Part shown: positions 8,649 to 21,622 of the stretch, in pieces
Numbering within the stretch: position 1 is the stretch's first letter
Layout of the letters: each line of letters starts with the position of its first letter
IMG/VR virus record: IMGVR_UViG_3300048930_000283
Direction: 5' to 3' (one strand)
Length of the DNA stretch: 42,873 nucleotides
Source of the DNA: a virus
Taxonomy: Duplodnaviria; Heunggongvirae; Uroviricota; Caudoviricetes
The notes under the pieces: model-generated
The model's input: the letters and a program-made list of their open reading frames with translations, nothing else
What the model was told of the DNA's origin: nothing
Database searches by the model: none
Made by a program: the position numbers and the translations under genes

Positions 8649-8730
8649 ATCAATCTCCTTTTATTTAGGATGATTAATTATTACATAAATCCAAATTAGT
8701 GTGGAATATTTTTATAATTGCTTGATTATA

Positions 8731-8808
8731 TGGTGCAAATGGTCAGATTCGAACTGACAGTCCCAATCCTCTCATGATTGGAGGTATACCAATTCCCGTC
8801 ACACTTGC
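8731..8808 (-). tRNA. tRNA-Leu(GAG), short variable arm
   Basis: CAATC-ATGAGAG-GATTG; CCA. Confidence 0.8.
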
Positions 8809-8809
8809 G

Positions 8810-8884
8810 TGGTGCCTCTTCCTGAACTTGCATCAGGTTCTATGCTTTACGAGAGCATCGTATCACTATCAATACTTAAGAGGC
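8810..8884 (-). tRNA. tRNA-Thr(CGT)
   Basis: ATGCT-CTCGTAA-AGCAT; CCA. Confidence 0.85.
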
Positions 8885-8891
8885 GAACCAG

Positions 8892-8965
8892 TGGAGCCCT
8901 CGGCCAGAATCGAACTGGCACCAAACCAAGTTTAGGAAACTCGGGGCTACTCCATTAGCGAGGAC
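8892..8965 (-). tRNA. tRNA-Arg(CCT), atypical D region
   Basis: CGAGT-TTCCTAA-ACTTG; CCA; 5' end overlaps the ORF stop at 8955. Confidence 0.75.
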
Positions 8966-9761
8966 TTAGTTCTAAATATGTACCATCACGAGCGCAATAT
9001 TCATTACCAAACTTATACTCACGACCGCATGATGGACAATACTTTTTTCGTTTAACTGTTATGGGTTTAACATCATCTATACCCACCAATTGAATAATCA
9101 TTGAATGAGATTCTGTTTCCAAGGCACCAATATATCCATAGGTGAATTCTTGGTTTGATTCTGATCCCTTAACTGTTATACCAGGATCATTGAATGATGA
9201 TCCACCCCTGAGAACCGAATTCGTGGAGACAGTACCATACCAATTTGAGTCTGGATCTACAGTCCATGGACGTACCCAAGTGTTCTCCCATGGTTTATAT
9301 GGTGGTACGTATGGATAGTAGGGTCTAACAACTTTTTCGTATTGAAATCCAATACGAATTAAACCATCTTCTGAACCAACTCCTCTGTGATCTTCAATCT
9401 CAGATGTTCTTTTAATGAACTTGAACTTGCGACCTTTATACATTGAGTCGCCTAGGAATCGTTCAAGATCAATTGATCCCATGGAGTCAACCAGCAATCC
9501 ATTTTGGGTTACGTTCTCACCATCTATCTCGATGTTTACTATTGCTTTTTGTGTGTTTAAATTTTTGATAAAGATTGAGTATTCTGAGTTCCATGGAAGA
9601 AAAACTTTATCCCCCTGTTCTCTTAATACCTTACCTTTTACCTTGACAGTTGCTACTAACTTATTTGAATACATGCTCATTTTACCTCCTTGTAACGATT
9701 GATGGACTAACAATCCAAAGTTTAAAGTCCATTGGTTAAGCATGATGTAGTTGTTACTCAC
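8955..9761 (-). CDS. conserved hypothetical protein with a C-terminal zinc ribbon (probable start 9680)
   Basis: CPSC..YC at C-terminus; GGAGG RBS before MSMY. Confidence 0.75.
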   Translation of the reverse strand: MSNNYIMLNQWTLNFGLLVHQSLQGGKMSMYSNKLVATVKVKGKVLREQGDKVFLPWNSEYSIFIKNLNTQKAIVNIEIDGENVTQNGLLVDSMGSIDLERFLGDSMYKGRKFKFIKRTSEIEDHRGVGSEDGLIRIGFQYEKVVRPYYPYVPPYKPWENTWVRPWTVDPDSNWYGTVSTNSVLRGGSSFNDPGITVKGSESNQEFTYGYIGALETESHSMIIQLVGIDDVKPITVKRKKYCPSCGREYKFGNEYCARDGTYLELSPR

Positions 9762-9769
9762 TCATTCAT

Positions 9770-9841
9770 TGGTGGGGGCACGGAGAATCGAACTCCGATC
9801 ATACGGAGCCGTAGGTAATTCAGCCATTATACGATACCCCC
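9770..9841 (-). pseudogene. tRNA lacking anticodon-loop positions 34-38 (possibly Lys-derived)
   Basis: intact acceptor, D and T arms and CCA; anticodon arm is TACGG-CT-CCGTA. Confidence 0.8.
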
Positions 9842-9975
9842 AAACTAATACTTATATTCTTTACCACATTTCTTCATTGTCCATTCAATGGCTCGAACGG
9901 GTTGAACTATTGGCCAGAGCATTGCTCTCAGAAACAAAGACCATAGATAATATACTATGGGTGGCCAATTATACA

Positions 9976-10338
9976 TTATTGATTCTCAGTCCACTGTTCA
10001 CCACAATCTGGACAACGGAATTCAATCCAATAGCAATCATCAGACTTAGACCAGTTTCCGGTGTCACCTTTATATGTTTTCAATACCCTCGGATGCTTGC
10101 AACTACCCTGTAATTCAATTAACTTTAGATTGAGTTCTGTTATTTTACCCTCAATCTTACTTCTTTCTCTTTTAATCTTGTTCTGTTCCTTGTGGTCACC
10201 TCGACAACCAGGACACAATCTAACTGTCCTATCAAAATCGTCTGCTGCAATTTCTGAATTACAACACTCGCAGGAACCGAAAACGGGTCGTTTAGTAGAT
10301 CTATTATACTCACTACCATGCTTACAACAGTTCTTCAT
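9976..10338 (-). CDS. Cys-rich zinc-finger hypothetical protein
   Basis: several CxxC motifs and a coiled-coil segment. Confidence 0.7.
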   Translation of the reverse strand: MKNCCKHGSEYNRSTKRPVFGSCECCNSEIAADDFDRTVRLCPGCRGDHKEQNKIKRERSKIEGKITELNLKLIELQGSCKHPRVLKTYKGDTGNWSKSDDCYWIEFRCPDCGEQWTENQ

Positions 10339-10353
10339 AGTAAATCCTTATTC

Positions 10354-10429
10354 TGGAGCTCTGGTGCAGAATTGAACTGCAATTTCTTCATTACCAATGA
10401 AGTGTAATTAACCATTATACGACAAGAGC
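10354..10429 (-). tRNA. tRNA-Thr(GGT)
   Basis: CTTCA-TTGGTAA-TGAAG; CCA. Confidence 0.9.
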
Positions 10430-10432
10430 ATT

Positions 10433-10677
10433 TGGTCATCTAATAGCCGAGGTTCTGTATCAGTACATATGTACCTAATCTATCATTTATCTCAGTTTTT
10501 GTCAAACTGGCACCGAAGTGCTGCCACAACCCGAACCTATAAGCAGAAGTTTCCCAGGTTCTGTTTGTGTTGCTTACTATATCACGGTGGTTTAACGATC
10601 ATTGATCTCCCACTCGACTTCTGCGTAAGCCTCGAACTTCCTCTACCCATAAAGAGCAGCGATAGATTTGATGACCA
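10433..10677 (-). ncRNA. rnpB: RNase P RNA, minimal (245 nt) with a reduced S-domain
   Basis: P1 TGGTCATC/GATGACCA; P4 strands GAGGAAGTTCGAGGC and ACAGAACCTCGGCTA; P5 GCTTAC/GTAAGC; P6-like GCAGAAGT/ACTTCTGC. Confidence 0.85.
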
Positions 10678-10678
10678 T

Positions 10679-10877
10679 TAAGAAATATTCACTTTACTGC
10701 GCAGCAACGATCATTCTTACGTTGCAATCTGGAATGACTTATTATCAGTTACTGTTGGCCTATTCACTGATTGTTTATCATTCGCTTGCCTCACTCAAGC
10801 CTGCTGCAGACAGGTGGTTTGATATTTTAGCAGCAATGTCCTGCGACTTTACGTCAGAACGAGGTGAATATTTCTTA
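10679..10877 (-). ncRNA. unidentified structured ncRNA
   Basis: perfect 14-bp terminal stem; lies between rnpB and tRNA-Val. Confidence 0.5.
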
Positions 10878-10878
10878 G

Positions 10879-10953
10879 TGGTCGATCCTACAGGTTACGC
10901 TCCTGTTACTCTTCCTTGTCACGGAAGTGTGATAGCTACTTCACCAAGGATCG
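10879..10953 (-). tRNA. tRNA-Val(GAC)
   Basis: CTTCC-GTGACAA-GGAAG; CCA. Confidence 0.85.
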
Positions 10954-10955
10954 AA

Positions 10956-11032
10956 TGGTACCCCCAGAGAGATTCGAACTCCCGGCTTCTTCGTTCGAAG
11001 CGAAGCACTCTAGTCCACTGAGTTATGGGGGC
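10956..11032 (-). tRNA. tRNA-Arg(TCG)
   Basis: CTTCG-CTTCGAA-CGAAG; CCA. Confidence 0.9.
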
Positions 11033-11038
11033 AATGTA

Positions 11039-11132
11039 TGGCGGCGGAGGTGGGATTCGAACCCACGAAGCACATTTTCATGGCCTGACATCTTAGCAGG
11101 ATGTTGTCTTAATCCATCTCGACCACTCCACC
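11039..11132 (-). tRNA. tRNA-Ser(GCT)
   Basis: ACATC-CTGCTAA-GATGT; long V arm; CCA. Confidence 0.9.
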
Positions 11133-11138
11133 AAAACT

Positions 11139-11216
11139 TGGTCGTGCATGTTGGAATCAAACCAACCTGTTCTTCTTTATGAGAGAAGCTCGTTGCATCT
11201 TGCTCGACTATGCACG
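11139..11216 (-). tRNA. tRNA-CAT (elongator Met or Ile2)
   Basis: CTTCT-CTCATAA-AGAAG; CCA. Confidence 0.8.
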
Positions 11217-11222
11217 TTTGTG

Positions 11223-11295
11223 CATCCCGTGACGGTGACGATCCGCCTCCTTCGGTTTTGGAGACCGATGTTCTACCAACTTGAACTAACGAGAT
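11223..11295 (-). tRNA. tRNA-Trp(CCA), CCA end not encoded
   Basis: TCGGT-CTCCAAA-ACCGA; 3' end G-CACA. Confidence 0.85.
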
Positions 11296-11296
11296 A

Positions 11297-11632
11297 TTAT
11301 CCTAATACTAGAAATGGAAAAACAAACAAGGCAAACAATAGAAACAAAAATGCCCATCTAAACTTTTTCCAATATTCTTTCTTTTCTATTGAAACACATT
11401 CCTGACACATATAGATGTCTTTATTTCTGTAGTACAATCTACCAGAATTTACTCTAAGTGTTGGTTTAAACCCTTTACCAGAAAATAGACTCTGTACATT
11501 CCCAACAGAAACTGAAGTACCTGAGCGACCAGATTGAATCTCTATTGTTCTGGCCTCACATTCACCAATATCGACAACATTGCCACAATAGTAACATTCA
11601 ACCGCACCAAATTTTGGTTTTCTTCGCCGCAT
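11297..11632 (-). CDS. zinc-binding membrane-anchored hypothetical protein
   Basis: two CxxC motifs; C-terminal TM; GGAGG RBS. Confidence 0.7.
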   Translation of the reverse strand: MRRRKPKFGAVECYYCGNVVDIGECEARTIEIQSGRSGTSVSVGNVQSLFSGKGFKPTLRVNSGRLYYRNKDIYMCQECVSIEKKEYWKKFRWAFLFLLFALFVFPFLVLG

Positions 11633-11659
11633 GATACCTCCATATTATAGTTAGAATTC

Positions 11660-11926
11660 ATGCAGAGGTTTTTGGTAATAAGGAAACCTCTGCGAACCCC
11701 ATCGAAGGTTACGCCGCTAGGCGCAGTTCTCCGAAATATGCACTATCATTTGCATTTATAGTTTTGTCTTCTTTAACTATCACGACTTTCGACCTTGCCG
11801 ATCCCAATATAGTGATTATGACCCAATCGAAACCATGACCGGCCCATCAAAAGGATACCAAATACCCTTTTGGTGGACCGAAAGGGAGTCGAACCCTTGT
11901 CTTGACCCATTTTCCAATATATTGTT
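11660..11926 (-). ncRNA. ssrA: circularly permuted (two-piece) tmRNA; tag ANDSAYFGELRLAA
   Basis: T-arm+CCA piece (ends 11871) precedes GGGCCGG 5' piece (starts 11845); G3.U70; intervening hairpin; tag frame 11753-11709. Confidence 0.9.
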
Positions 11927-12245
11927 TTACTCAGTTACCTGAGTGAATTTTGTTAAAATCCTACCTTTAGTTAATTTAGTTACCATTGTATTACTTGGGT
12001 ACAGATAATAATTCTCACTGCCATCATTGTACCAATGTCTGCCATATGCAGGATTTTTCTTATCCTTTTTGATATCTCTCCACATTGATATTGGAACCCA
12101 TCCGGATGGAATATTATCTTTGTTAAATGATTTTCTTTCACTGCAATCATTCGCATTCTCAGGAATGCACCAAACACACCCATAATGATTGTTGTTGGTG
12201 CCGGTGGCAAGTTCTGAAAGGCGATTCTTTGTTTCTTCTGAAAAC
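11927..12245 (-). pseudogene. C-terminal (NUMOD-like) fragment of a homing endonuclease
   Basis: SEETKNRLS..NNHYG..W, NPAYGRHWYNDG, KGRI; no catalytic domain. Confidence 0.65.
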
Positions 12246-12635
12246 AGAAAACTTCTAAATGAAAGCAATCAAAATAGATTGGCATCAAAAACACATAACT
12301 TTCTAACGAACAACCCGTCGAAAGGAACATCCCATCATAGAACTGGTGCTAAACACACTGAAAGTTCTAGACGAAAAACGTCTGAAAAACTATTAACATT
12401 TTTTAAAGAAAACAAAGGATCGAGGTCTCTTCGAATTCACATTTTCAATGAAAAAAATGAATTACAGTATGAATGTTTTGGAAATTTCAATACCGTTTGT
12501 ATTCAAAATAATCTCCCTCTTTATGCATTAAGAGCTTCATATATAAATCAAGGAAAACCAATTTATACATCATACCCCCCTAAAATTCCTGGTATGGATG
12601 TTTATAAGGGTTGGTATTCCGTTGTTATTAAGTAA
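12235..12635 (+). pseudogene. second homing-endonuclease C-terminal fragment, opposite strand
   Basis: THNF, GAKHTESSRRKTSE (NUMOD3-like), YKGW; no N-terminus. Confidence 0.55.
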
Positions 12636-12686
12636 TAATTGCTTTCACACGGTACTACAAATCACACAAACGCCAGCTTGTGTTAG

Positions 12687-12776
12687 TGGCGGAGAGTGTG
12701 GGACTCGAACCCACGAGACCATATTTCAGGTCCATTGCTTTCCAGGCAATTCTGATAGCCACTACAGGAACTCTCC
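12687..12776 (-). tRNA. tRNA-Ser(GGA)
   Basis: ATTGC-CTGGAAA-GCAAT; long V arm; CCA. Confidence 0.9.
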
Positions 12777-12783
12777 ATTATTT

Positions 12784-12867
12784 TGGAGGCGAATAATAGA
12801 CTCGAACTATCAACCTTTCGGTGGGACGACTTTCGAAGTCGCTTTGTGCCCCGCACACCTACTCGCC
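12784..12867 (-). tRNA. tRNA-Ser(CGA)
   Basis: GCGAC-TTCGAAA-GTCGT; V arm; CCA. Confidence 0.8.
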
Positions 12868-13057
12868 TTTATATCTGGGAAGATTTGAAAACACTTTTCG
12901 GATTTCATATGAGAAACGTATCAAAGTCTCTATCTTCGTCTCTCTGTTTTTCGGGTATCACTGTAGCGATATAGTGGTTAATCCACAAGACTAAGACTTA
13001 CTAGTCCTCTTCCCCAACCCATCCACTCACTAATGAGTGACCTCTCTCTACAATTAT

Positions 13058-13134
13058 TGGTACCCAAGGTCGGACTCGAACCGACAGATTTCTCTTTTTG
13101 AGAGAGATTCCTTTACCAATTTGGACACTTGGGC
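13058..13134 (-). tRNA. tRNA-Leu(CAA), short variable arm
   Basis: TCTCT-CTCAAAA-AGAGA; CCA. Confidence 0.9.
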
Positions 13135-13179
13135 ATTGTTTTCGATGAACCCTCTTCGGAAGATTCATTGAAAACCAAA

Positions 13180-14040
13180 TCACTGAGATTACATGATTTG
13201 CTACAGCCACCTTAGTTCCATTATCCACAGTATTGCGTACCGGGTTCTGAACTTATCCACGGAATCAAATTCCGTCTGACTGCATAACCGCCTTTTTAAC
13301 GTTGTGGCATTTCAACGATCTAGCAACACAACTCTAGTTCTGATCTACTCCCAACCTTGCGGGCTGTTCGGGCTGCTACACCCTAGATGCGACCTCGACT
13401 AAACATCATCAGCCTTGCGAGCCTCAGACGCCAACCTTCATCTTTCGATGGATTGGATTAGGTTATTTTCGTGTTACTATGAGTGCGACTTTGCTTTTTA
13501 GTAAGGTTGGACTTGAACCAACAACGATCTCTTGACATGAGATTGATCTCCTTGATCAACTTATTTGCAACCTACATTTGGAGCGCACTCAACGCTTCGT
13601 AATCTTTTGAATTACGAAATACGCTTCCAAATCTACCTTTCTGCTGCCGCATACTCAGTGAAATTTCTAGACGTCGTCTATGTCATTTCTTACAGACATT
13701 AGCCGAGACCTATTATTTTGAACTAAACCCTTTTCTTGCGGGATCAGAGCTTAATTCTACCCTTTACCTTTATAAGTGATGGATTTGGTACAGCTGTGAG
13801 ATCGGCACCACCCGTCTATGCTTTCGCACTCTCCATACACTGACGTTCCCAGACTAGCTGGCGTCTAAGTGTAAGTTCTTGTCACAGCATCCACTTCCCT
13901 ATTACGACCACCGCATTTGTAAGTGATCGCCCTGTCACCAGGGAGGTTAGGCTTGCATGAATTTCCATTTACATGGCGGGAGTTAAGTAGGATCTGCTCC
14001 CTTTCGCTGACTTGCGCCAGTTTATGTGTCATGCCACTAA
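13180..14040 (-). ncRNA. probable GOLLD large ncRNA (~860 nt)
   Basis: no convincing ORF; many GNRA hairpins (GCAA/GAAA); 3' segments AAAAGGCGG, GTGGATAA and GTAATCTCAG resemble the GOLLD 3' domain as I recall it; tRNA-array context. Confidence 0.7.
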
Positions 14041-14094
14041 TTCTATACTACATTAATACAACTTTAAATACAAATTTACTACTTTACTACTTTA

Positions 14095-14186
14095 TAGACC
14101 TGATGGGATTCGAACCCATGACATAATGTAGTGTCGTTTGACTCCTAGGATAACCACATCTGCTCTGGCCTCTGAGCTACAGGTTT
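14095..14186 (-). ncRNA. tRNA-like RNA with a branched anticodon arm
   Basis: canonical D and T arms; 8-bp anticodon-position stem enclosing 20 nt; no CCA. Confidence 0.65.
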
Positions 14187-14188
14187 AT

Positions 14189-14265
14189 TGGCAACCAGGG
14201 TGGGACTCGCACCCACTTCGGACGGCTTCAAAGACCGTTGCCTCGACTCCTTCGGCATCCTGGCG
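14189..14265 (-). tRNA. tRNA-Gln(TTG)
   Basis: ACGGT-CTTTGAA-GCCGT; CCA. Confidence 0.85.
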
Positions 14266-14274
14266 ATTGTTACT

Positions 14275-14348
14275 TGGAGCAGGTAACGAGAATCGAACTC
14301 GTGCATAAACTTTGGCAAAGTTTTAGGCTACCATTACATCATACCTGC
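14275..14348 (-). tRNA. tRNA-Gly(GCC)
   Basis: AAACT-TTGCCAA-AGTTT; U73; CCA. Confidence 0.9.
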
Positions 14349-14354
14349 ATTCAT

Positions 14355-14430
14355 TGGTACCCATGAGAGGACTCTAACCCCCACCTGATTCTTTAGAAGA
14401 GAATTGCTCTTACAGTTAAGCTACATGGGC
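14355..14430 (-). tRNA. tRNA-Arg(TCT)
   Basis: ATTCT-CTTCTAA-AGAAT; CCA. Confidence 0.9.
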
Positions 14431-14436
14431 ATTGTT

Positions 14437-14591
14437 AGGTCCCACTGGTTGGTGTCGAACCAACATTCCCTAAATGAAGTTTTAACTATCAATCCACATG
14501 CCTTCAGTTAATATAAGGCTGACTCAACTGACAGTGTTACTATCATTCTCTATAGCGTGGTCCGCGGAGACATTCACGCTTTACAGTGAGA
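14437..14591 (-). ncRNA. 155-nt RNA with a tRNA acceptor stem, T arm and a large internal domain
   Basis: TCTCACTG/CAGTGGGA stem; GTTGG-TTCGACA-CCAAC. Confidence 0.6.
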
Positions 14592-14597
14592 TTGTAT

Positions 14598-14688
14598 TGG
14601 AAGCGAGAGCCGGTTCTGCCCACGGCCTATGACCTTTCGGTACCTCTGGGTTATGAGCCCAGTGAGACAACTACTTCTCCATCTCGCT
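14598..14688 (-). tRNA. initiator-like tRNA-Met(CAT) with a long variable arm
   Basis: CTGGG-CTCATAA-CCCAG (three G:C pairs); extra ACC-GAAA-GGT arm; CCA. Confidence 0.75.
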
Positions 14689-14697
14689 ATTATTTCT

Positions 14698-14741
14698 TGG
14701 TCCTCGGCCACGGTAACGATCCGTGCCGTTCCAGCCAATCT
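14698..14741 (-). pseudogene. 3' half of a split tRNA (Ile TAT type)
   Basis: AGATTGGC..CACGG-ATCGTTA-CCGTG-GCCGAGG-A-CCA pairs with the 5' half at 15525-15559. Confidence 0.8.
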
Positions 14742-14744
14742 ATT

Positions 14745-14836
14745 TGGTAGTCCCCCAGGGACTTGAACCCTGACTAACCGCTAATCTGGCGTATCGAGTT
14801 TATAAGGCTCGTCGTGCTACATTACACTAGAGGACT
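14745..14836 (-). tRNA. tRNA-Ile(TAT) with a long variable arm
   Basis: CGAGC-CTTATAA-ACTCG; V arm CGCCAGATTAGCG; CCA. Confidence 0.8.
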
Positions 14837-15489
14837 AATAATTCTATAAATTCTAAATTTATTAAATCATTTGATAATACAACAACTTTAATGTTATTTA
14901 ATTTCATTGCGGAATCTATCTTTTGTTTATCTTTCTTAATCAAGAAATCATTCTTAGGATCAAGAAAAATATTCTGCTTAGGCAAGTAAAAATCAGGAAT
15001 GTAACGCCTTTTCTTTCCATTGTCATCCCAAACATAACCCTGCCTAACACGCTCCCACTCAACATTCAGTTTATCTAGTATTTCAGCAACCCGCACCTCA
15101 TATGAAGATTCTAAAATAACACCTGGTTTATACTCAACATTCTTAGTGTATTTTGAATGTTTTGCCAACCTCTCACATGCGATAATAGAAAGTCTATCTT
15201 TAGTTTCATCAGAATGAACACATCTGGGAAATATATGCCCATTCGCCTCCATTTGTTTCTTTCTCTCATATCCCATTATCCCAAATTTTCTCTGTTGCTC
15301 TGAATTATGGGCCCTGCTTTTATGACCAGAATATCCCTGTGAAGTTTGCAAAATCTTACCGCATAACTCACATTCCCACTTAGTCTTCTTTTCAATAATT
15401 CCCTTGCAACATTTAACATGCCGAACAAAATTAGATGCACTAATTCTTCGCTGACATTTTGAACAATCTTGCTTTTTTATTTGGCTCAT
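14827..15489 (-). CDS. PD-(D/E)xK (EDxHD/TnsA-like) homing endonuclease with zinc fingers
   Basis: ESSYE..RYIPDFYLP..LDPKN; C2H2-like fingers; stop codon inside tRNA-Ile. Confidence 0.8.
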   Translation of the reverse strand: MSQIKKQDCSKCQRRISASNFVRHVKCCKGIIEKKTKWECELCGKILQTSQGYSGHKSRAHNSEQQRKFGIMGYERKKQMEANGHIFPRCVHSDETKDRLSIIACERLAKHSKYTKNVEYKPGVILESSYEVRVAEILDKLNVEWERVRQGYVWDDNGKKRRYIPDFYLPKQNIFLDPKNDFLIKKDKQKIDSAMKLNNIKVVVLSNDLINLEFIELLVL

Positions 15490-15508
15490 TATGCCTCCCT
15501 CATTATAT

Positions 15509-15516
15509 TATTTATA
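15509..15516 (-). promoter_or_regulatory. T4-type late promoter TATAAATA
   Basis: exact motif upstream of the GGAGG RBS; same motif and context at 18270-18277. Confidence 0.65.
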
Positions 15517-15524
15517 TAGGAATC

Positions 15525-15559
15525 ATAAACGCCCTAGCCGCCCACCTGGGCCACCGAGG
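15525..15559 (-). pseudogene. 5' half of a split tRNA, ending at anticodon TAT
   Basis: CCTCGGT..GCCCAGGTGGGC..AGGGCG-TT-TAT. Confidence 0.75.
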
Positions 15560-15641
15560 ATATACGGTCAAGACAATTAAGCCTTACCTTTTACGTTAAA
15601 CACTATGATTAAGATACTTTACTAAAATACACTAATCATAA

Positions 15642-15682
15642 TGGTGGGACTGCAGGATTCGAACCTGCAACGGGACGTTACC
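15642..15682 (-). pseudogene. 3' half of a split tRNA (Thr type)
   Basis: (G)GTAA-CGTCC-CGTT-GCAGG-TTCGAAT-CCTGC-AGTC..ACCA. Confidence 0.7.
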
Positions 15683-16064
15683 TTCGCCTCTTGCCTGAAC
15701 CTTTATTTTTACCTTTAAATGTATCGGTCAAAGAATGACAATTTGAACACAATACTTCTAAATTTATTAGAGAATGGTCGGTACTATCACCGTTTATATG
15801 ATGCAATTCTAAAGGTATTGGTTGGCACATCCATTCTGTCAAATTACATTTCTCACATTTTCTTTGTTTAATACCTTCATCAAATAGTTTGTTTTTTAGT
15901 TTTAAAGATTGAAATGCTGGGTATTTTCCTTCTAAAATATCACTCAATTGTACTTTATTTGGTGGAGATATATTAGTTTTTATACCTTTATTCCATGGTA
16001 TTGAATTTTTCTTTGCTGGCATTTTATTCTCCTTGATTGCACCTATACATCTATTTATGTGCAA
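15678..16064 (-). CDS. HNH homing endonuclease (probable start 16022)
   Basis: PWNKG; CEKC..LELHHINGD..NLEVLCSNCHS. Confidence 0.9.
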   Translation of the reverse strand: MHINRCIGAIKENKMPAKKNSIPWNKGIKTNISPPNKVQLSDILEGKYPAFQSLKLKNKLFDEGIKQRKCEKCNLTEWMCQPIPLELHHINGDSTDHSLINLEVLCSNCHSLTDTFKGKNKGSGKRRR

Positions 16065-16072
16065 TCAAATCT

Positions 16073-16147
16073 TGGTTCCCTGTGAGAATTCCGAGATCTC
16101 GACCTATCGCTTACAAGGCGATTGCTCTGCCACTGAGCTAACAGGGA
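16073..16147 (-). tRNA. tRNA-Thr(TGT)
   Basis: ATCGC-CTTGTAA-GCGAT; CCA. Confidence 0.85.
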
Positions 16148-16159
16148 ATAAATATGTTC

Positions 16160-16179
16160 AACCTTTCAGCCAAGCCAGC
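16160..16179 (-). pseudogene. 5' remnant of a Thr-type tRNA
   Basis: GCTGGCT-TG-GCTG-AAAGGTT. Confidence 0.55.
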
Positions 16180-16187
16180 GTATTCTT

Positions 16188-16261
16188 TGGTCCTTCCTGC
16201 AGGTAATGCTCCTACGTCGCACGATTATCAGTCGTGTGCTCTTCTTTTGAGCTAAGGAAGG
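16188..16261 (-). tRNA. tRNA-Ile(GAT)
   Basis: CACGA-CTGATAA-TCGTG; CCA. Confidence 0.85.
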
Positions 16262-16274
16262 ATTGGTGGTTTTT

Positions 16275-16358
16275 TGGTGGTTCACCACGGTAACGATCCG
16301 TGCGGGCCGAAGCATCTGCTTTACAGGCAGACCATCCTCCTTAGATGTCTAATGAACC
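16275..16358 (-). tRNA. tRNA-Tyr(GTA)
   Basis: TCTGC-CTGTAAA-GCAGA; V arm; CCA. Confidence 0.85.
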
Positions 16359-16504
16359 TCATTCATGCGCTAAATAGTGTGTTCTCCAGGTTTCTCCTAC
16401 TTGTTCTAACAACGAAACAAAACTATGCAACTTATTGGAGTGTGCTAATCTATGACAATTCGGACATAAAATAGTTAAATTATCATGATACTACCCCATG
16501 ATTT

Positions 16505-16578
16505 TGGAGTCTAGTAACAGAATCGCACTGTTCTCTTCGGGTTTGCAATCCGAGGCCCATCTCCTAGACCAACTAGAC
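16505..16578 (-). tRNA. tRNA-Cys(GCA)
   Basis: TCGGA-TTGCAAA-CCCGA; U73; CCA. Confidence 0.85.
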
Positions 16579-16585
16579 AAATTAC

Positions 16586-16673
16586 TGTCGGAAGTGGTAG
16601 GATTTGAACCCACGTGTCCTTTCGGACCATCTGTTTTCAAGACAGCGCCAATAAGCCTCTCTGGCACACTTCC
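16586..16673 (-). tRNA. tRNA-Ser(TGA), 3' end ACA
   Basis: CTGT-CTTGAAA-ACAG; long V arm. Confidence 0.9.
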
Positions 16674-16708
16674 ATAAAACTCTAGCTTACTACCAAGCAA
16701 CCGTATTT

Positions 16709-16790
16709 AGGTGTCGTTGGGTGGGATTTGAACCCACTAACGTCATGACTCGTTATATTCCGTACTGAGAGCGACTCAGCAACAACGACA
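16709..16790 (-). ncRNA. tRNA-like RNA with non-canonical arm order
   Basis: TGTCGTTG/CAACGACA stem; GTGGG-TTCAAAT-CCCAC. Confidence 0.55.
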
Positions 16791-16795
16791 TTGTT

Positions 16796-16872
16796 TGGCG
16801 CCACCAGAGGGAACTCGAACCCTCTCCATTGCTTTGACAGAGCAATATGCAATACCCATACACTATGATGGC
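16796..16872 (-). tRNA. tRNA-Asp(GTC)
   Basis: TTGCT-CTGTCAA-AGCAA; CCA. Confidence 0.85.
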
Positions 16873-17055
16873 AAATTTTTTATATGAAGTCGACAAAAGG
16901 ACTTACGTGTATTGATTCGATCTACTTGGCTTTACCCAGCGTGAGTCTATGTCTCTATCAATGCCTATCCACAATACCCTACTGGTCGATTACAAGGCAC
17001 GCCGTCCGAGCATTATTCTCCATCTACTATTTTGTGGTATCAACCTCATATTTCT

Positions 17056-17138
17056 TGGTACTCTCGGTGGGACTCGAACCCACAATGACAGGATTTTTAA
17101 GACCCTTAGCTGTGCCAATTCGCATTAGTCACGAGAGC
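17056..17138 (-). tRNA. tRNA-Leu(TAA), second copy with extra nt before the D arm
   Basis: AGGGT-CTTAAAA-ATCCT; CCA. Confidence 0.8.
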
Positions 17139-17146
17139 ATTTTGTT

Positions 17147-17223
17147 TGGTGCCCCAGAGGAGACTCGAACTCCTAAAATTTACGTTCTAAGCGTAACACG
17201 TATACCAATTCCGTCACCGGGGC
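17147..17223 (-). tRNA. tRNA-Leu(TAG), short variable arm
   Basis: TTACG-CTTAGAA-CGTAA; CCA. Confidence 0.9.
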
Positions 17224-17229
17224 ATTATT

Positions 17230-17309
17230 TGGCGACACATAAGGGAATCGAACCCTCCTGAACCTCTGCATTGACAGTGCAGCGACCACACCAAGCAGTC
17301 CCATGTGCC
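17230..17309 (-). tRNA. tRNA-Asp(GTC), second copy
   Basis: CTGCA-CTGTCAA-TGCAG; CCA. Confidence 0.85.
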
Positions 17310-17321
17310 ATTATATTATTT

Positions 17322-17396
17322 TGGTCCCACCTGCAGGTAACGCTCCTGCCTCTATGGATTTTCAGTCCATCACTAATCTATCTCAGTTAAAGTGGG
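17322..17396 (-). tRNA. tRNA-Phe(GAA)
   Basis: ATGGA-CTGAAAA-TCCAT; CCA. Confidence 0.85.
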
Positions 17397-17527
17397 TCAA
17401 TACTGTTATAAAACACACCCGAAGTCATATAAATCCTGACAGAAATATACTCGCATGTGTCAGCATACCGACCTAACACCCACTGGGAGGCCGCAACAGA
17501 TGTGGTTTGTAACAGTATTTGGAAAAT

Positions 17528-17560
17528 TGGTCCTCGGTGTCAGACTCGAACTGACATGCT
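17528..17560 (-). pseudogene. 3' half of a split tRNA (probably Val)
   Basis: AGCAT-GTCAG-TTCGAGT-CTGAC-ACCGAGG-A-CCA pairs with the 5' half at 18279-18312. Confidence 0.8.
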
Positions 17561-17564
17561 ATCT

Positions 17565-17637
17565 TGGTGGGTCTTGACGGTTACGCTCCGCCGACTTCCG
17601 CTTGTAAGGAGGATGTTTTACATTAAACTAAAGACCC
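17565..17637 (-). tRNA. tRNA-Val(TAC)
   Basis: TCCTC-CTTACAA-GCGGA; CCA. Confidence 0.85.
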
Positions 17638-18249
17638 AATTATACTCCAAGTTAGTTGGTTTGATGTTAAAACTAGAACCCTAACTGAATTTTGTTCTAC
17701 AACGGCAGATATTTTACGTTGGTCCTTCTTGATTAAGAAGTCATTTTTTGGATCAAGATAAACACCGTAATTTGGCAAGTAAAAGTCGGCAAAGTATTTT
17801 CTCTCTCTGCCATCTAACACATACATTAGATAGGCCGGTCGTATCCAGACAATACCGACTGCATCTAATTCTTGAGCAACTCGAAACTCGTATGAAGACT
17901 CGAGCCAAACTCTGCCTGCGGTAGGAGACTCGTACCACCCATGAGCGTACCTGTTTTTATTCTGACAGCCGAAATTTCTTTCTATAGCAATCTTGCTCAA
18001 CTTCTTTCTAGTCTCTAGTGTAATAGGTATAGATCTTGCTCGGCCTTTAGTTGTTCTCGAAACGCTCTCAGAAATCTTCTTAACCAAATCACTTGTTTCT
18101 TTTGTCAATCCTTTATTCCATGCTAGACAACCTTTTCTATTTCCGCCAGTCGGAACATTGGTTCTCAAAGGATTGTTTCGACATAGCCTTTCATGGTTGC
18201 GGTGAGAATTAGAATTCTTACATTCTTTTTGACAAAACTTACATATCAT
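17623..18249 (-). CDS. PD-(D/E)xK homing endonuclease, paralog of 14827-15489
   Basis: ESSYE..YFADFYLP..LDPKNDFLIKKD; AWNKG; GGAGG RBS; stop codon inside tRNA-Val. Confidence 0.8.
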   Translation of the reverse strand: MICKFCQKECKNSNSHRNHERLCRNNPLRTNVPTGGNRKGCLAWNKGLTKETSDLVKKISESVSRTTKGRARSIPITLETRKKLSKIAIERNFGCQNKNRYAHGWYESPTAGRVWLESSYEFRVAQELDAVGIVWIRPAYLMYVLDGRERKYFADFYLPNYGVYLDPKNDFLIKKDQRKISAVVEQNSVRVLVLTSNQLTWSIIGSLV

Positions 18250-18278
18250 CGTTGTACCCTCCTTTATATTATTTATAA

Positions 18279-18312
18279 AAGGAAGGCGCTTGAACCTCTC
18301 AGCTACCCGAGG
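18279..18312 (-). pseudogene. 5' half of a split tRNA, broken in the anticodon loop
   Basis: CCTCGGG-TA-GCTGAGAGGTTCAAGC-G-CCTTC-CTT followed by TATAAATA. Confidence 0.8.
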
Positions 18313-18493
18313 ATATAAAGTGGAAGAATATGTTCTCATTACGATCTAACTTAGCCGACTCATCTTTCCGATAACCAGGTAGCCTCCCAAGAATGGAGGT
18401 GATCTACGTTTTAGAATAGTAGTCTTTTTTCCTGGCCAGGATAACTGGACGACTATAATGAAAGAGGCTCATAACCACTTCGTTTTACTATTT

Positions 18494-18572
18494 TGGTCTC
18501 AGTGGTAGGATTTGAACCTACGATATCCTGCTCCCAAAGCAGGTGCTATTGACCAGGCTAAGCGACACTGAG
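18494..18572 (-). tRNA. tRNA-Pro(TGG)
   Basis: CCTGC-TTTGGGA-GCAGG; CCA. Confidence 0.9.
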
Positions 18573-18580
18573 TTATTCTG

Positions 18581-18656
18581 TGGTGGACCATGGCGGTACC
18601 GCCCCGCCTCTTCCAAGGTGCAAGCTTGGTGTGCTACCTTCTATCACTAATGGCCC
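18581..18656 (-). tRNA. tRNA-Ala(TGC)
   Basis: CCAAG-CTTGCAC-CTTGG; G3.U70; CCA. Confidence 0.9.
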
Positions 18657-18782
18657 AATTCTGTATTCTTTTTTAGTGTAAATTCGTTGTTTAGGCTTGT
18701 ATGTGGATTTCCCACAGGTTTTACATATTTTCATATCAATTATTTATAACACCCCAAGCAGGCCCATCCCCGTCTAATTTTG

Positions 18783-18968
18783 TATTCACATAAGGCTGTC
18801 GACTGAAACGTGCTTGTTGGATTCGAACCAACGATAGGCCTACATCGGGACCCGTGTTTCCGCTACACCATTGCACTCATTAACCCAAATTTGCGCCAAC
18901 AAAAATGAATGTTAATGCCAATCTAGAGCCACTGCTACATTTGGCGATATAACAGCCTTATGTGAATA
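18783..18968 (-). ncRNA. Y RNA (YrlA)-like RNA: long closing stem plus a tRNA-like domain
   Basis: 17-bp terminal stem; internal D and T arms at 18810-18876. Confidence 0.55.
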
Positions 18969-19170
18969 AATTGTCCCTTCATCATTCTGTCTTCGGAAAT
19001 GAAACTAGAATGGACTCGACGTTTGAATCTACATTCTGACAGACATTAGGACTTTCATTTCATGTTCCTGCCACCTATTATTGGTTCCTTTACCCGACTA
19101 AACGGTCTCACCATACTGTTGCCAGTGGCTATCATAGCGCCCTAGTGGCATGGGGCTCGAGGTATCATAC

Positions 19171-19830
19171 TCATATCGTCATATGAGCTAAGATTCTTCC
19201 TTTTCTATATCCGGTCGGTATTTCATCACTCTTTTTAATTTTCTTATTGAAAATACCGTTAGTTATCCACATAGTACCAAACTGGGAATTACCCACACCA
19301 GTTTGATTTTTAGAATTTTTCCTACTTATTTTTTCCTTAGACAACAAATTGTGCGTTTTTCCTAGAAAAGCAGTTTTACCCGCACTAGAAAACGCCTCGC
19401 TAATTCCATGTCTACTATAAGATATTGTTCCACCCAACGAACCCAATTTGGAATGAAAATTATCACCATATAAGTTTCGAAGTTTCTCATTCGCAAGAAG
19501 TCGTCCCTTACGTGTTCTGGAAATATGCAATTCAGACCCATCATTTAAATAGTCAAACCCACCACTACCGCCTCGTCTTAGATTATAGGTATCATCACGA
19601 GCTAGAAATTCTTCGGTTACGATTTCTGCTTCTCTTGCATACATCGCTTCTTTTGATTCGAAGTACTCTAGGATAGTTTTGGTGAAATTTTCCACACCAT
19701 ATTTCTCGATCGCTGCTAGAATTACTTTTCCAGAGCCCATATAACCATCATTTAAATCTTTGGTTTTATGCACTCCTACGTAAATTTTGCCATTGAGATT
19801 ACATCTCACTTCATATAAGTAATAGAACAT
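19171..19830 (-). CDS. Seg-like GIY-YIG homing endonuclease
   Basis: YYLY..KIYVGVH..YMGSG..YNL; NSQFGTMWITNG. Confidence 0.9.
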   Translation of the reverse strand: MFYYLYEVRCNLNGKIYVGVHKTKDLNDGYMGSGKVILAAIEKYGVENFTKTILEYFESKEAMYAREAEIVTEEFLARDDTYNLRRGGSGGFDYLNDGSELHISRTRKGRLLANEKLRNLYGDNFHSKLGSLGGTISYSRHGISEAFSSAGKTAFLGKTHNLLSKEKISRKNSKNQTGVGNSQFGTMWITNGIFNKKIKKSDEIPTGYRKGRILAHMTI

Positions 19831-19872
19831 TTTGTCCTCCTTACTTATATTTATGCAAAATCTACTTTTGTG

Positions 19873-19950
19873 AGCAGATCGGGAGAGTCGAACTCCTTGC
19901 TTTCGCGTCGGTTTGGAAGACCGATTCCTCTACCCTAAGGAACGACCTGC
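19873..19950 (-). tRNA. tRNA-Gly(TCC) with a small extra arm, CCA not encoded
   Basis: TCGGT-CTTCCAA-ACCGA; GC-GAAA-GC V arm; 3' end T-CACA. Confidence 0.8.
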
Positions 19951-19957
19951 ATATTAC

Positions 19958-20037
19958 TGGGGTGTCTAGTGGGACTCGCACCCACTAAAACTATGATTCA
20001 CAGTCATAGGGCTCGACGACTTTGCTCTTTAGACACC
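19958..20037 (-). tRNA. tRNA-His(GTG)
   Basis: TATGA-CTGTGAA-TCATA; G-1:C73; CCA. Confidence 0.85.
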
Positions 20038-20100
20038 ATTGAATTTGTGGAGGGCTCTCTCCCTCCGCGGACCTTGCTTGAGCATTCAGTATAGGTCTAA

Positions 20101-20130
20101 TCATCTCCTTGCAAGTCATCTCCTTGCAAG
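20101..20130. repeat. 15-bp direct tandem duplication
   Basis: tcatctccttgcaag x2. Confidence 0.9.
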
Positions 20131-20137
20131 TACAATC

Positions 20138-20213
20138 TGGCTCCGGTACCTGGAGTCGAACCAAGATCAAGTGATTAACAGTCACCCCGCACAACCACCG
20201 CGCGTCTACCGGA
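20138..20213 (-). tRNA. tRNA-Asn(GTT)
   Basis: GGTGA-CTGTTAA-TCACT; CCA. Confidence 0.85.
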
Positions 20214-20221
20214 ATTGAATT

Positions 20222-20292
20222 TGGTACCCCAGAGAGGACTCGAACCTCCGTAAGCTTGCTTCGTAGGCATGCCACCATCCTTTGGCTGGGAT
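20222..20292 (-). tRNA. tRNA-Arg(ACG), shortened D region
   Basis: CATGC-CTACGAA-GCAAG; CCA. Confidence 0.75.
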
Positions 20293-20300
20293 ATTAATCT

Positions 20301-20375
20301 TGGTGAACCGTATGGGTTTCGATCCCATCTGCGTAGTTTGAAAGACTACTGACCACACCAGCCGTCCCACGGTTC
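20301..20375 (-). tRNA. tRNA-Glu(TTC)
   Basis: GTAGT-CTTTCAA-ACTAC; CCA. Confidence 0.85.
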
Positions 20376-20380
20376 ATATT

Positions 20381-21045
20381 TGGCCTCAGCTATCTCAGTC
20401 GATAAACGTCCGAGATTGTCTTAATCTGTATCCTGAGGCAATACAGAAGCATCACCAATACTATAAGATGAGATACCACTTGGTGATGTAGTAATCCCAC
20501 CACTACTCTTTAATGATTTCTCCCAGGAAACTAACGCCCCCTGTTCCATCTGCCAATGGCTGTGGTTTTGTGATAATCCCTGGCAGGGGTCGTGTCACTT
20601 ATCCACTCTTCTGAAGAGAAACCATTAAAGAGTGCTCTATTTCTAGAGCAAATCAACATGAATCCTATTAGTATGTCTACCCACAGACTACACCTCGCCG
20701 ACGCATGGCCGATGGGGGAGTGCATACCAGCTGTGTCTATAATAGAATCATATTGACCTAAACGACCCATTTTTCCGCTGACAAATCAGCTTCCATCCTT
20801 GTCGCCGCCCATTCGGTTTTATTTACAAGGTTCCGCAGTCTCGTTCCGCATTTCCTTGACTCACTGTTGCCTGGCATCAGCTTACTTCATCGATTGTCTT
20901 TCGACTCGATTGCCCTCTTTAGGTCACTAACAACCCGGAGTACCGATTGTTAGAAGAGGTCTTCTTGGCGGGCTCTTGACCCCACTTAGCCCTTAATTAC
21001 TTCGCATCATTTACCTGTTACTCACCTTCAAATCAATCAACATGA
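20381..21045 (-). ncRNA. structured non-coding leader of the tRNA array (several modules)
   Basis: no convincing ORF; closed stems at 20505-20633 and 20651-20758 and many hairpins. Confidence 0.55.
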
Positions 21046-21049
21046 ATCC

Positions 21050-21078
21050 ATTATATTTAATTCGGTATTAATTGTCAA
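21050..21078 (-). promoter_or_regulatory. consensus sigma70 promoter facing the RNA island
   Basis: TTGACA-17 nt-TATAAT. Confidence 0.85.
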
Positions 21079-21100
21079 AACAAATTTTAAATACTTGATT

Positions 21101-21137
21101 ACAAACAAAAAACCCCAGATTTTAATGTCTAGGGTTT
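21101..21137 (-). terminator. intrinsic terminator of the putative attenuator
   Basis: AAACCCTAGA-CATTAAAA-TCTGGGGTTT followed by a U-tract. Confidence 0.8.
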
Positions 21138-21167
21138 CTGTTTACTACACACCAGTAACCCTAGAAC

Positions 21168-21248
21168 TTATGCTGGTGCACCTTCCCATCCACAATTCAA
21201 TAGAATTGAATCGGATATTAAACTATATGTAAAGGGTTTGCGCTGCAT
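21168..21248 (-). CDS. putative attenuator leader peptide MQRKPFTYSLISDSILLNCGWEGAPA
   Basis: AGGA RBS 6 nt before ATG; followed by mutually exclusive hairpins; 25 distinct codons out of 26. Confidence 0.7.
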   Translation of the reverse strand: MQRKPFTYSLISDSILLNCGWEGAPA

Positions 21249-21276
21249 TTCTGTTCCTAAGGTTAATTTGTTTTCC

Positions 21277-21307
21277 ATTATAATATATATGCCTGCTGCG
21301 AGGTCAA
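21277..21307 (-). promoter_or_regulatory. sigma70-like promoter for the leader
   Basis: TTGACC followed by TATTAT (16 nt spacer) or TATAAT (19 nt spacer). Confidence 0.5.
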
Positions 21308-21331
21308 AACTAAGAAATTTTGAAAAATATT

Positions 21332-21622
21332 TTACAGTTCTATATAGTTGCTCTTAATTAGATTTATACCCAATAGTTTACAATAAACCACAAACGAATC
21401 ACGACCACTTAAACTATCAAAGTAAACGTGTCCTGCATTAGAAATACCACCAAACATTGTAGCGTCGGGTAATTCAGCATTATAACGTGTTTTTGGTGGT
21501 AGTGTTATCCCAAACCACCCCAAATACTTTTCAGTTGGAGGAATTTCAAAATATAGAATGTTAACTGAATTCATTATCGTCTCGGTGCCCAACTCGCATT
21601 GCCATATTTGACTCTGTTTCAC
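21332..21622 (-). CDS. hypothetical protein (probable start MNSVN)
   Basis: ORF overlapping the queD end. Confidence 0.5.
   Translation of the reverse strand: MKQSQIWQCELGTETIMNSVNILYFEIPPTEKYLGWFGITLPPKTRYNAELPDATMFGGISNAGHVYFDSLSGRDSFVVYCKLLGINLIKSNYIEL

Follow-up and report, generated by a model that had tools for sequence, protein, structure and literature searches.

Mobile group I introns occupy the anticodon loops of bacterial tRNA genes, and the intron of the Synechocystis tRNA-fMet gene reportedly encodes I-Ssp6803I, a PD-(D/E)xK enzyme. Integrative elements, such as prophages and islands, insert in tRNA genes and carry a duplicate of the end which they displace. The gene mobE is said to split nrdA of phage Aeh1, and 'fractured genes' with split inteins are known. 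'Cleave and rescue' or 'home and rescue' drives are engineered Cas9 systems in insects. To our knowledge, homing endonuclease genes have been thought to persist in essential genes only by means of self-splicing introns or inteins, or else to reside between genes. Here we describe a locus found in a Caudoviricetes virus (IMG/VR record IMGVR_UViG_3300048930_000283), in a stretch of 42,873 nt which is referred to in its whole length as the window. At positions 14698-15559 of the window, the gene of an endonuclease and a complete tRNA(UAU), hereafter called the cargo tRNA, are flanked by the two pieces of another tRNA(UAU) gene, hereafter called the outer gene. The locus is probably a free-standing homing-endonuclease cassette of a 'destroy and replace' kind, residing inside a resident tRNA(UAU) gene. 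No description of such an arrangement was found in the literature on interrupted or split tRNA genes with homing endonucleases in phages.

SegB, a GIY-YIG homing endonuclease encoded in the tRNA cluster of phages T4 and T6, is described as free-standing (Brok-Volchanskaya 2008, PMC2330249, as cited in PMC13096335), and its cleavage peaks are located within the tRNA genes of relatives, with the motif RAWTSGAAC (PMC13096335). SegB and the present nuclease are alike in being encoded by free-standing genes in phage tRNA arrays, and SegB spreads along with flanking tRNA genes by gene conversion. In contrast, SegB lies between intact tRNA genes, disrupts none of them, has a GIY-YIG fold and no nested tRNA, whereas the present cassette lies inside a tRNA gene with the same anticodon as its cargo, and its open reading frame (ORF) is fused to the spare tRNA. 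The anticodon-loop site, the PD-(D/E)xK fold and an empty allele as presumed target are shared with the group I introns of tRNA genes, but in the latter a ribozyme splices and the tRNA is functional, whereas here no ribozyme is found, the outer tRNA is dead, and a second gene substitutes for it. As in integrative elements, damage to a tRNA gene is offset by tRNA sequence brought along. Those elements, however, rely on an integrase and attP/attB sites, duplicate the 3' end only and regenerate the same gene, whereas the cassette couples a nuclease to a presumed repair, brings a whole and different tRNA, and leaves both old ends orphaned. In the mobE and fractured-gene systems a homing endonuclease gene also sits inside an essential gene without an intron, but the products reassemble, either as a split protein or through a trans-splicing intein; in the present locus the pieces have been given up, and their function has passed to a spare gene. 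Home-and-rescue drives similarly combine the destruction of an essential gene by a nuclease with a linked, resistant copy which rescues that gene. The likeness is an analogy of working rather than of membership, the present element being natural, made of protein only, and found in phages.

The components of the locus, all on the minus strand and listed in the order of transcription, are the following.

15559-15525, minus strand: 5' piece of the broken outer tRNA(UAU), recognized by its sequence and by the invariant columns of the family alignment A4
15524-15517, minus strand: junction sequence GATTCCTA, the 8 nt after TAT
15516-15509, minus strand: TATAAATA box, T4-late-promoter-like by motif, putative promoter of the nuclease gene
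15489-14827, minus strand: nuclease ORF, 220 amino acids, assigned by ORF, motif and fold
14836-14745, minus strand: cargo tRNA(UAU), complete, 92 nt, called tRNA-Ile(tat) by ARAGORN and matched by the Rfam tRNA model (42.3 bits)
14741-14698, minus strand: 3' piece of the broken outer tRNA, recognized by alignment to the family consensus and by a partial covariance-model match
14691..15562, minus strand: whole composite unit (outer pieces plus cassette), a block 100% identical in three sludge strains, X2, X11 and X15

The 5' piece is made by the acceptor strand CCTCGGT (15559-15553), a linker G, the D arm GCCC-AGGT-GGGC, GGC, TAGGGCG, and TT-TAT, which ends at 15525. The 3' piece opens with AGATTGGCTGG-AACGG, where AGATTGGCTGG corresponds to the variable-arm loop and 3' strand, and continues with the T arm CACGG-ATCGTTA-CCGTG, GCCGAGG, A73 and CCA. 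Sequences of the insert which are neither tRNA nor ORF are limited to about 35 nt 5' of the ORF, where a GGGAGG ribosome-binding site is found 5 nt before the ATG at 15489, and to the 3-nt spacer which separates the cargo tRNA from the 3' piece. A preliminary description of this DNA had listed the same parts, and all of them, with their coordinates, proved correct on the minus strand when checked against the sequence. The pairing of GCCGAGG with CCTCGGT, which it had also reported, was confirmed (7/7, with one G-U pair). The D stem (4/4) and the T stem (5/5) of the outer tRNA are intact as well, and the anticodon/variable-arm part is lost. The variable-arm loop which the two tRNAs had been said to have in common is real as to AGAT, invariant in both tRNA types.

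Uninterrupted relatives of the outer gene were found by scanning IMG/VR with short conserved stretches of the outer pieces. At one locus (L187; loci are denoted by numbers throughout) both stretches lie only 42 nt apart, within an uninterrupted 95-nt tRNA called Ile(tat) by ARAGORN. The screen of all fetched loci yielded 54 distinct uninterrupted sequences from IMG/VR contigs (alignment A4), including L187:3489-3583, L170:4074-4168 and 52 further loci. The anticodon is TAT in every intact member, as in the cargo, and the two tRNAs are thus the same isoacceptor, as had been claimed. Members of the family feature a 7-bp acceptor, a 1-nt linker, a 4-bp D stem with a TGGT loop, GGC, a 6-bp anticodon stem with the loop CTTATAA, a 6-bp variable arm with an AGATG loop (variable-arm block GGAGA..GGTCAGATGGGCTG.AACGG), a 5-bp T stem, A73 and an encoded CCA. 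This cloverleaf is strongly supported, as cells of the alignment are paired in 98.5% of the cases, compared with 31-49% when partners are slid. Compensatory changes are found in 17/28 pairs, and the covariation score was reached by no shuffle. The A73 and the long variable arm of the family would also suit Leu or Tyr systems.

The family columns 3, 9, 10, 14, 15 and 19-23, all invariant, are retained in the 5' piece, the TT of which fits the invariant columns 30-31 if 1-2 extra nt are allowed in the anticodon stem. The 3' piece aligns to consensus positions 52-95, retaining the invariant AGAT..GGCTG.AACG block, the T arm and ACCA, and is matched in part by the covariance model of the family, R1 (model positions 43-84, 13.4 bits, E 0.025). 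The best match of R1 in the window is the cargo tRNA (32.2 bits), and the two tRNA types are therefore related. Judging from these retained positions, the outer gene was a tRNA(UAU) of the 95-nt family, and homology to the intact family is stronger evidence of this than an acceptor pairing, which may arise by chance. A blastn search of the 50,697 isolated-phage records of INPHARED gave no match to the 95-nt family, the exact 29-nt 5' piece had no match in IMG/VR, and blastn of the cassette region against isolated phages gave no informative match. The 95-nt tRNA(UAU) type with a long variable arm is apparently both widespread and undescribed.

Allo-tRNAs have an 8/4 structure, formed by an 8-bp acceptor and a 4-bp T stem (Mukai 2017, PMC5389517). 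Such a structure was considered for the outer family but rejected on covariation, which is found between columns 68 and 86 (AU, CG, UA, GC), a T-stem pair, and not between columns 8 and 86; the family is therefore 7/5. The resemblance of the 95-nt family to allo-tRNAs is limited to a tetraloop in the D arm, a long variable arm and the frequent occurrence of UAU as anticodon. The T loop is ATCGTTA or ATCGTAA, and not TTCGAAT, in many tRNAs of these phages (14711-14717, 16291-16297; A4 columns 74-81). Positions 54 and 58 are exchanged jointly (T..A to A..T), as if a reverse-Hoogsteen pair were inverted, and both forms of the loop are present inside one tRNA family.

The preliminary description had viewed the outer pieces as a 5' half and a 3' half, separated by a break directly after TT-TAT. 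Both pieces are present, but they are not clean halves. The 3' piece begins in the variable-arm loop. Missing before it are 10-20 nt, in which the anticodon stem had its 3' strand and the variable arm its 5' strand, so that the break can be placed only between the anticodon and the variable arm. The left junction reads GTT|TATGATTCC-TATATAAATA in the window. It falls after C32-U33-U34 (CTT|TG-TATAAATA) in L002, L012, L088, L366, L368 and L369, and reads CTTA| in L015, L017, L026, L028, L033 and L091, which have TAT cargo, and likewise in L098. At the right junction, sequence is kept from the loop on (ACAT..CTGGAGAG..) in L002 and L368; the 3' piece starts within the 5' strand of the variable arm in L011, and at the variable-arm loop in L009, L012 and the window. 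The junction sequence GATTCCTA is readable as the rest of a degenerate anticodon hairpin with a 10-nt loop (TAGGG/TCCTA, complementary 5/5, TAGGG being specific to this allele). TCCTA may be a remnant of the 3' strand of the anticodon stem; chance pairing is estimated at ~3% and the reading is ambiguous, and so is, as a consequence, the exact break point.

Were the insert an intron, ~800 nt would be spliced out of the outer tRNA, and both tRNAs would be made. Group I introns with homing endonuclease genes are established residents of bacterial tRNA anticodon loops, and the outer tRNA has kept its acceptor, D and T helices. Yet no intron family was detected at E<=1 in a permissive Rfam scan of 6000-22000, and the ~35 nt upstream and 3 nt downstream are too short for a ribozyme core (P3-P9). 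Moreover, the strands needed to restore the anticodon stem and the variable arm are missing in the window, and the 3' strand kept in L368 no longer pairs with the 5' strand. An intron is hence barely credible, and the scarcity of non-coding sequence also agrees with the earlier view of an intron-less element. With 10-20 nt gone and no ribozyme, the outer gene is dead, and unable to yield a tRNA. ARAGORN, run with introns allowed, did not recover the outer tRNA in the window; it proposed arbitrary anticodons elsewhere, and this output was not used. No joint of the outer pieces was seen in the RNA-library contigs X15 and X17, but contigs cannot show absence, and the result is not evidence either way.

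The cargo had been described as a complete but divergent tRNA-Ile(TAT), and is indeed a well-formed tRNA, structurally different from the outer type and with the same anticodon. It scores 108 in ARAGORN, and its Rfam score compares with a gathering score of 29. It features a long variable arm (CGC-CAGATTA-GCG), A73 and an encoded CCA, and has a single C31xA39 mismatch. Among 19 homologous cargo tRNAs, compensatory changes were found in 18/20 predicted pairs, and the cargo is therefore a tRNA under selection. Its nucleotides 1-10 (AGTCCTC-TAG) include the last two sense codons and the stop of the ORF, U8-A9-G10 being the TAG. The cargo is the sole UAU tRNA found in the window, where AUA occurs 15 times per 1000 codons in the long ORFs. 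A long variable arm is atypical for a bacterial tRNA-Ile, and the visible evidence of identity is given by the UAU anticodon and A73. The blocks GCGGC and GGAGA, which flank the anticodon arm in the 95-nt family, are missing in the cargo; as far as can be read from the sequences, this is a plausible basis for a resistance of the cargo to cutting. All three cargo tRNAs of the window (14745-14836, 16076-16147, 17565-17637) have U34 and read A-ending codons; AUA, ACA and GUA measure 15, 21 and 15 per 1000 codons, respectively, in the long ORFs.

The N-terminal 60 residues of the nuclease make up two C2H2-like zinc fingers, and the C-terminal region carries a PD-(D/E)xK motif (E131, P165-D166, D177-P178-K179) invariant in 35 homologues. 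The AF2 model (pLDDT 90.8) has the alpha-beta-beta-beta-alpha-beta core fold. Foldseek retrieved I-Bth0305I (3r3p; probability 1.00, E 5.6e-3, 21% identity), the homing endonuclease of a Bacillus phage intron. In VIA-align comparisons of residues ~95-220, TnsA (Z 8.2) was followed by I-Bth0305I and Vsr (Z 7.8), and then by Hjc, Bax1 and Can2. Although a Z value of about 8 is only moderate, the top rows are all nucleases of the PD-(D/E)xK (restriction-endonuclease-like) fold, save two mitoribosomal protein chains. I-Bth0305I, Vsr and TnsA are the best structural matches of the C-terminal domain. I-Bth0305I differs from the present family, as no sequence-profile match between the two could be detected, the C2H2-like zinc fingers are specific to the present family, and the present element is not borne by an intron. 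A profile search of PDB sequences matched the zinc fingers only, and gave no match for the nuclease domain; the PHROGs match is 'endonuclease' (4e-10). The PD-(D/E)xK assignment, made already in the preliminary description, is supported by the motif and the predicted fold taken together.

Homologues of the nuclease amount to 286 at E<=1e-3, and nearly all are unnamed and metagenomic. Alignment-based scans of IMG/VR succeeded, whereas a scan with the single protein gave no match, and tblastn retrieved only 5 distant homologues. An unannotated homologue (L370:1136-1860) resides in the isolated Stenotrophomonas phage vB_SmaM_Bhz51 (OR797040.1, about 80000-80720). It is flanked by tRNA-Ile(gat) and tRNA-His(gtg), and the ORF extends into the 5' half of tRNA-His. 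Bhz51 provides a culturable system for the nuclease family. A [T/C/A]ATAAATA box was found at <=70 nt upstream of the ORF in 41/116 distinct loci, as compared with 0/116 control windows inside ORFs. The window hosts 5 copies of TATAAATA, all on the transcribed strand, a copy number not above chance. The nuclease gene is free-standing, having its own expression signals (the TATAAATA box and GGGAGG) and no match to an intron model. The X15 RNA-library contig (14200-15487) ends 2 nt inside the start of the nuclease ORF, and DNA contigs of other runs continue. Contigs cannot show starts, and the end hints, at best weakly, at transcription beginning just after the TATAAATA box.

The loci surveyed were 160 identified via the nuclease profile, 5 more added by look-up, and paralogues in complete jumbo-phage records. 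The stop of the ORF lies inside a tRNA, typically at U8-A9-G10, in ~70/115 distinct loci. The overlapped anticodons are TAT (24), TGT (11), GAT (7) and TCC (5), as well as GGT, CAT, CCA, TAC and others; in all, the >100 loci yielded no fewer than 15 anticodons of overlapped tRNAs and two nuclease folds unrelated to each other. The succession of half-tRNA, nuclease, tRNA and half-tRNA, for which the preliminary description had advised a survey, thus recurs, with other anticodons and also with an unrelated HNH nuclease. In many loci the 5' piece stops in the anticodon loop, at a break at positions 34-36, and its acceptor strand pairs 7/7 with that of a 3' piece. Acceptors pairing 7/7 are combined with matching or compatible anticodons in L058 and L379 (GAT), L077 (TGT) and L115 (TCC). 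Where enough of the outer anticodon is left for comparison, it agrees with that of the cargo, as in L058, L112 and L379 (GAT), in L077 (T34, cargo TGT), in L098 (TA, cargo TAC) and in L115 (T34, cargo TCC). A 5' piece of the type found in the window is also located upstream of nuclease homologues in L002, L006, L009, L011, L012, L088, L092, L366, L368 and L369. In L002, a 345-kb phage contig with a 74% identical nuclease, the layout is the same and the acceptors are different and complementary (AGTACTC/GAGTACT); two compensatory changes set the outer acceptor stem of L012 apart from that of the window.

Such pieces could be viewed as recombination debris of the tRNA array, unrelated to the nuclease gene, the latter being placed among tRNA genes as other free-standing nucleases are. 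The mosaicism of the arrays is high, strains exchange whole tRNA genes, T arms are common to different tRNAs, and an extra 135-nt difference between strains is found at the HNH locus described below. The hypothesis is nevertheless very improbable, as in the loci examined the 5' piece type is found only directly upstream of the nuclease promoter, and the same tRNA junction position recurs in dozens of loci, in three nuclease lineages and with at least 5 anticodons.

Interrupted and uninterrupted states could be compared in L368, where the nuclease is 74% identical to that of the window. The outer pieces of L368 match an uninterrupted tRNA in L353 at every position (27/27 and 60/60). Their identity to the intact tRNA of L298 is 97%, and the upstream bases and downstream features of L298 are collinear with those of L368. 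The uninterrupted allele which the preliminary description had proposed to look for was thus found for a relative, but not for the exact locus.

It may alternatively be supposed that the primary mobile unit is a replacement tRNA 5' half fused to the ORF, which, once inserted at the anticodon, rebuilds the gene by joining the 3' half of the target, much as integrases do with 3' ends, the orphan 3' piece of the window being a secondary duplication or the outcome of a nested second event. The hypothesis would explain identical anticodons without selection, and agrees with the overlap of the ORF, which always involves the 5' part of a tRNA. Moreover, an orphan 5' piece is not accompanied by a 3' piece in L006, L366, L037 and L098, the inner 3' acceptor pairs with the orphan 5' piece 6/7 in L006 and 5/7 in L037, and the inner variable arm of L006 resembles the target type. 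In contrast, a complete inner tRNA coexists with a separate pairing 3' piece in the window, L002, L368, L009, L011 and L012, and also in L017, L028, L058, L077, L115 and L379. In addition, the acceptor stems of the targets are very different, and a fixed 5' half would often fail to pair. A 5' half is accordingly unlikely to be the primary mobile unit of the family; the loci with a 5' piece only suggest either a variant supplying a 5' half, or later recombination between inner and outer 3' halves.

The locus is part of a phage-like tRNA island of the window, transcribed from the minus strand, which includes 28 ARAGORN tRNAs, further tRNAs found by Rfam only, and two other RNAs.

11709-11934: permuted tmRNA, in the same tRNA island (Rfam, 85.3 bits)
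13180-13634: GOLLD RNA, in the same tRNA island (Rfam, 184.5 bits)

The GC content of the window is 39.6%. Near-identical sequences were found in activated-sludge, bioreactor and soil metagenomes from 11 studies, and the nuclease protein is on record from a 170,873-nt contig. Comparison of contigs showed 0 differences between the window and the sludge strains X2, X11 and X15 over 14691-15562 (to 15487 in X15). Both flanks of the unit, 14600-14691 and 15562-15625, are exchanged for other sequence in the three strains.

The left flank hosts a tRNA-like gene.

14598-14690, minus strand: tRNA-like gene with anticodon CAT, a long variable arm and an aberrant T arm, with the ends AGCGAGA/TCTCGCT-T-CCA

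This gene folds as a cloverleaf, is called neither by Rfam nor by ARAGORN at default settings, and is replaced by a different 77-nt sequence in other strains. Similarly, a different 85-nt sequence is found in X2, X11 and X15 in place of the tRNA-Arg(TCT) at 14355-14430; exchanges of entire tRNA genes thus account for differences between the strains.

Two additional cassettes reside in the window. The first encodes an HNH nuclease.

15642-16179, minus strand: HNH cassette of the same design
about 16177-16157, minus strand: 5' piece of a long-variable-arm tRNA
16147-16076, minus strand: cargo tRNA-Thr(TGT), upstream of the ORF
16059-16052, minus strand: CATAAATA box
16022-15678, minus strand: HNH ORF, the end of which overlaps the 3' piece
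ending at 15642, minus strand: T arm and ..CCA of the 3' piece

The region 15676-16156 is missing in the near-identical strains X2, X11 and X15, which carry instead 29 nt forming, together with the flanks, a complete anticodon arm, CCTGA-TTTGTAA-TCAGG (TGT). The HNH cassette thus combines the same design with an unrelated nuclease, and its absence from these strains marks it as a true insertion polymorphism. The strains have 135 extra nt near 15653, which accounts for the mismatch of the HNH acceptor strands in the window, and only the 29-nt anticodon arm of the empty HNH allele is reliable.

The second additional cassette encodes a paralogue of the nuclease at 15489-14827.

17528-18312, minus strand: second PD-(D/E)xK cassette, with a paralogous nuclease
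18312-18279, minus strand: 5' piece
18277-18270, minus strand: TATAAATA box
17637-17565, minus strand: cargo tRNA-Val(TAC)
17564-17528, minus strand: 3' piece

The nucleases of the Val and Ile cassettes are 41% identical in the nuclease domain, and the two cassettes have identical outer ends, TATATCCTCGG ... CCGAGGACCAA. Identical ends could result from gene conversion among the tRNA genes of the array, or denote a role of the acceptor/T helix at the RNA level. The orphan T arm is the same as that of the tRNA-Tyr at 16358-16275, T arms being common to unrelated tRNAs of the array. The 3' piece of the Val cassette opens with AGATAGC, which resembles the variable-arm loop of the tRNA(UAU) family.

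A role at the RNA level would imply that the outer pieces are retained on purpose. By means of the acceptor/T-arm helix, the two ends of the cassette transcript would be held together as a tRNA-like clamp, or handle. RNase P and 3' processing enzymes would recognise the clamp, and the nuclease mRNA with the cargo would thereby be stabilised, or freed from the long array transcript; DNA homing may hold too. The acceptor (7/7), D (4/4) and T (5/5) stems are intact in spite of the loss of the anticodon/variable-arm part, acceptors pair 7/7 in nearly all loci having both pieces, and the Ile and Val cassettes share their ends at 41% protein identity. In addition, the acceptor stem has undergone two compensatory changes between the window and L012, and strains keep the unit exactly, from one end of the outer tRNA to the other, while flanks are swapped. 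However, the 3' piece or both pieces are absent in many loci (L006, L010, L365, L366, Bhz51), L011 reads CTA and not CCA, and gene conversion could explain the common ends, given that unrelated tRNAs have T arms in common. Recently split genes, moreover, are expected to look intact anyway, and the halves of L368 are identical to the intact allele. A function of this sort seems unlikely. If true, a dead gene would have been recruited as a processing or stability module for a selfish gene.

Anatomy, recurrence, and filled and empty states all support homing of the destroy-and-replace kind. The cassette comprises a putative late-type promoter, the gene of the zinc-finger/PD-(D/E)xK nuclease and, joined to the end of the ORF, a whole tRNA(UAU). 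According to this model, it would have entered the anticodon/variable-arm region of a structurally different resident tRNA(UAU) (95 nt, 4-nt D loop, long variable arm). In a mixed infection, a relative free of the cassette would have its uninterrupted tRNA(UAU) gene cut by the nuclease, in or close to the anticodon, and repair would copy the cassette, the tRNA pieces and the neighbouring array serving as homology arms. The cargo would be spared because it lacks the invariant GCGGC and GGAGA blocks. By preserving AUA decoding, it would make the invasion cheap for the phage.

Several data weigh against the destroy-and-replace model. The loop is CTTATAA in cargo and target alike. The TAT locus itself has no empty allele in X2, X11 and X15, all of which carry the unit, 100% identical. 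Right junctions vary between loci, which calls for the assumption of deletions at a later time or of more than a single mode of insertion. The identical ends of the Ile and Val cassettes are unexpected under simple independent insertion, and L006, L366, L037 and L098, where only the upstream 5' piece is found, also fit an element carrying a replacement 5' half. Cut site, cutting specificity and cargo resistance are, furthermore, inferred from sequence comparisons.

Next to residence in introns or inteins, or between genes, the cassettes would represent a third solution, in which the gene is broken and a working, differently built copy is supplied. They are also a source of annotation pitfalls, since the halves are missed by tRNA finders, introns are invented by intron-aware modes, and the nuclease is truncated or overlooked by gene callers. 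The nucleases may supply new sequence-specific enzymes, the targets of which are readable from the broken gene. Cassettes of this type are common in the tRNA arrays of large uncultured phages (>100 loci examined), and probably drive the rapid turnover and mosaicism of phage tRNA sets.

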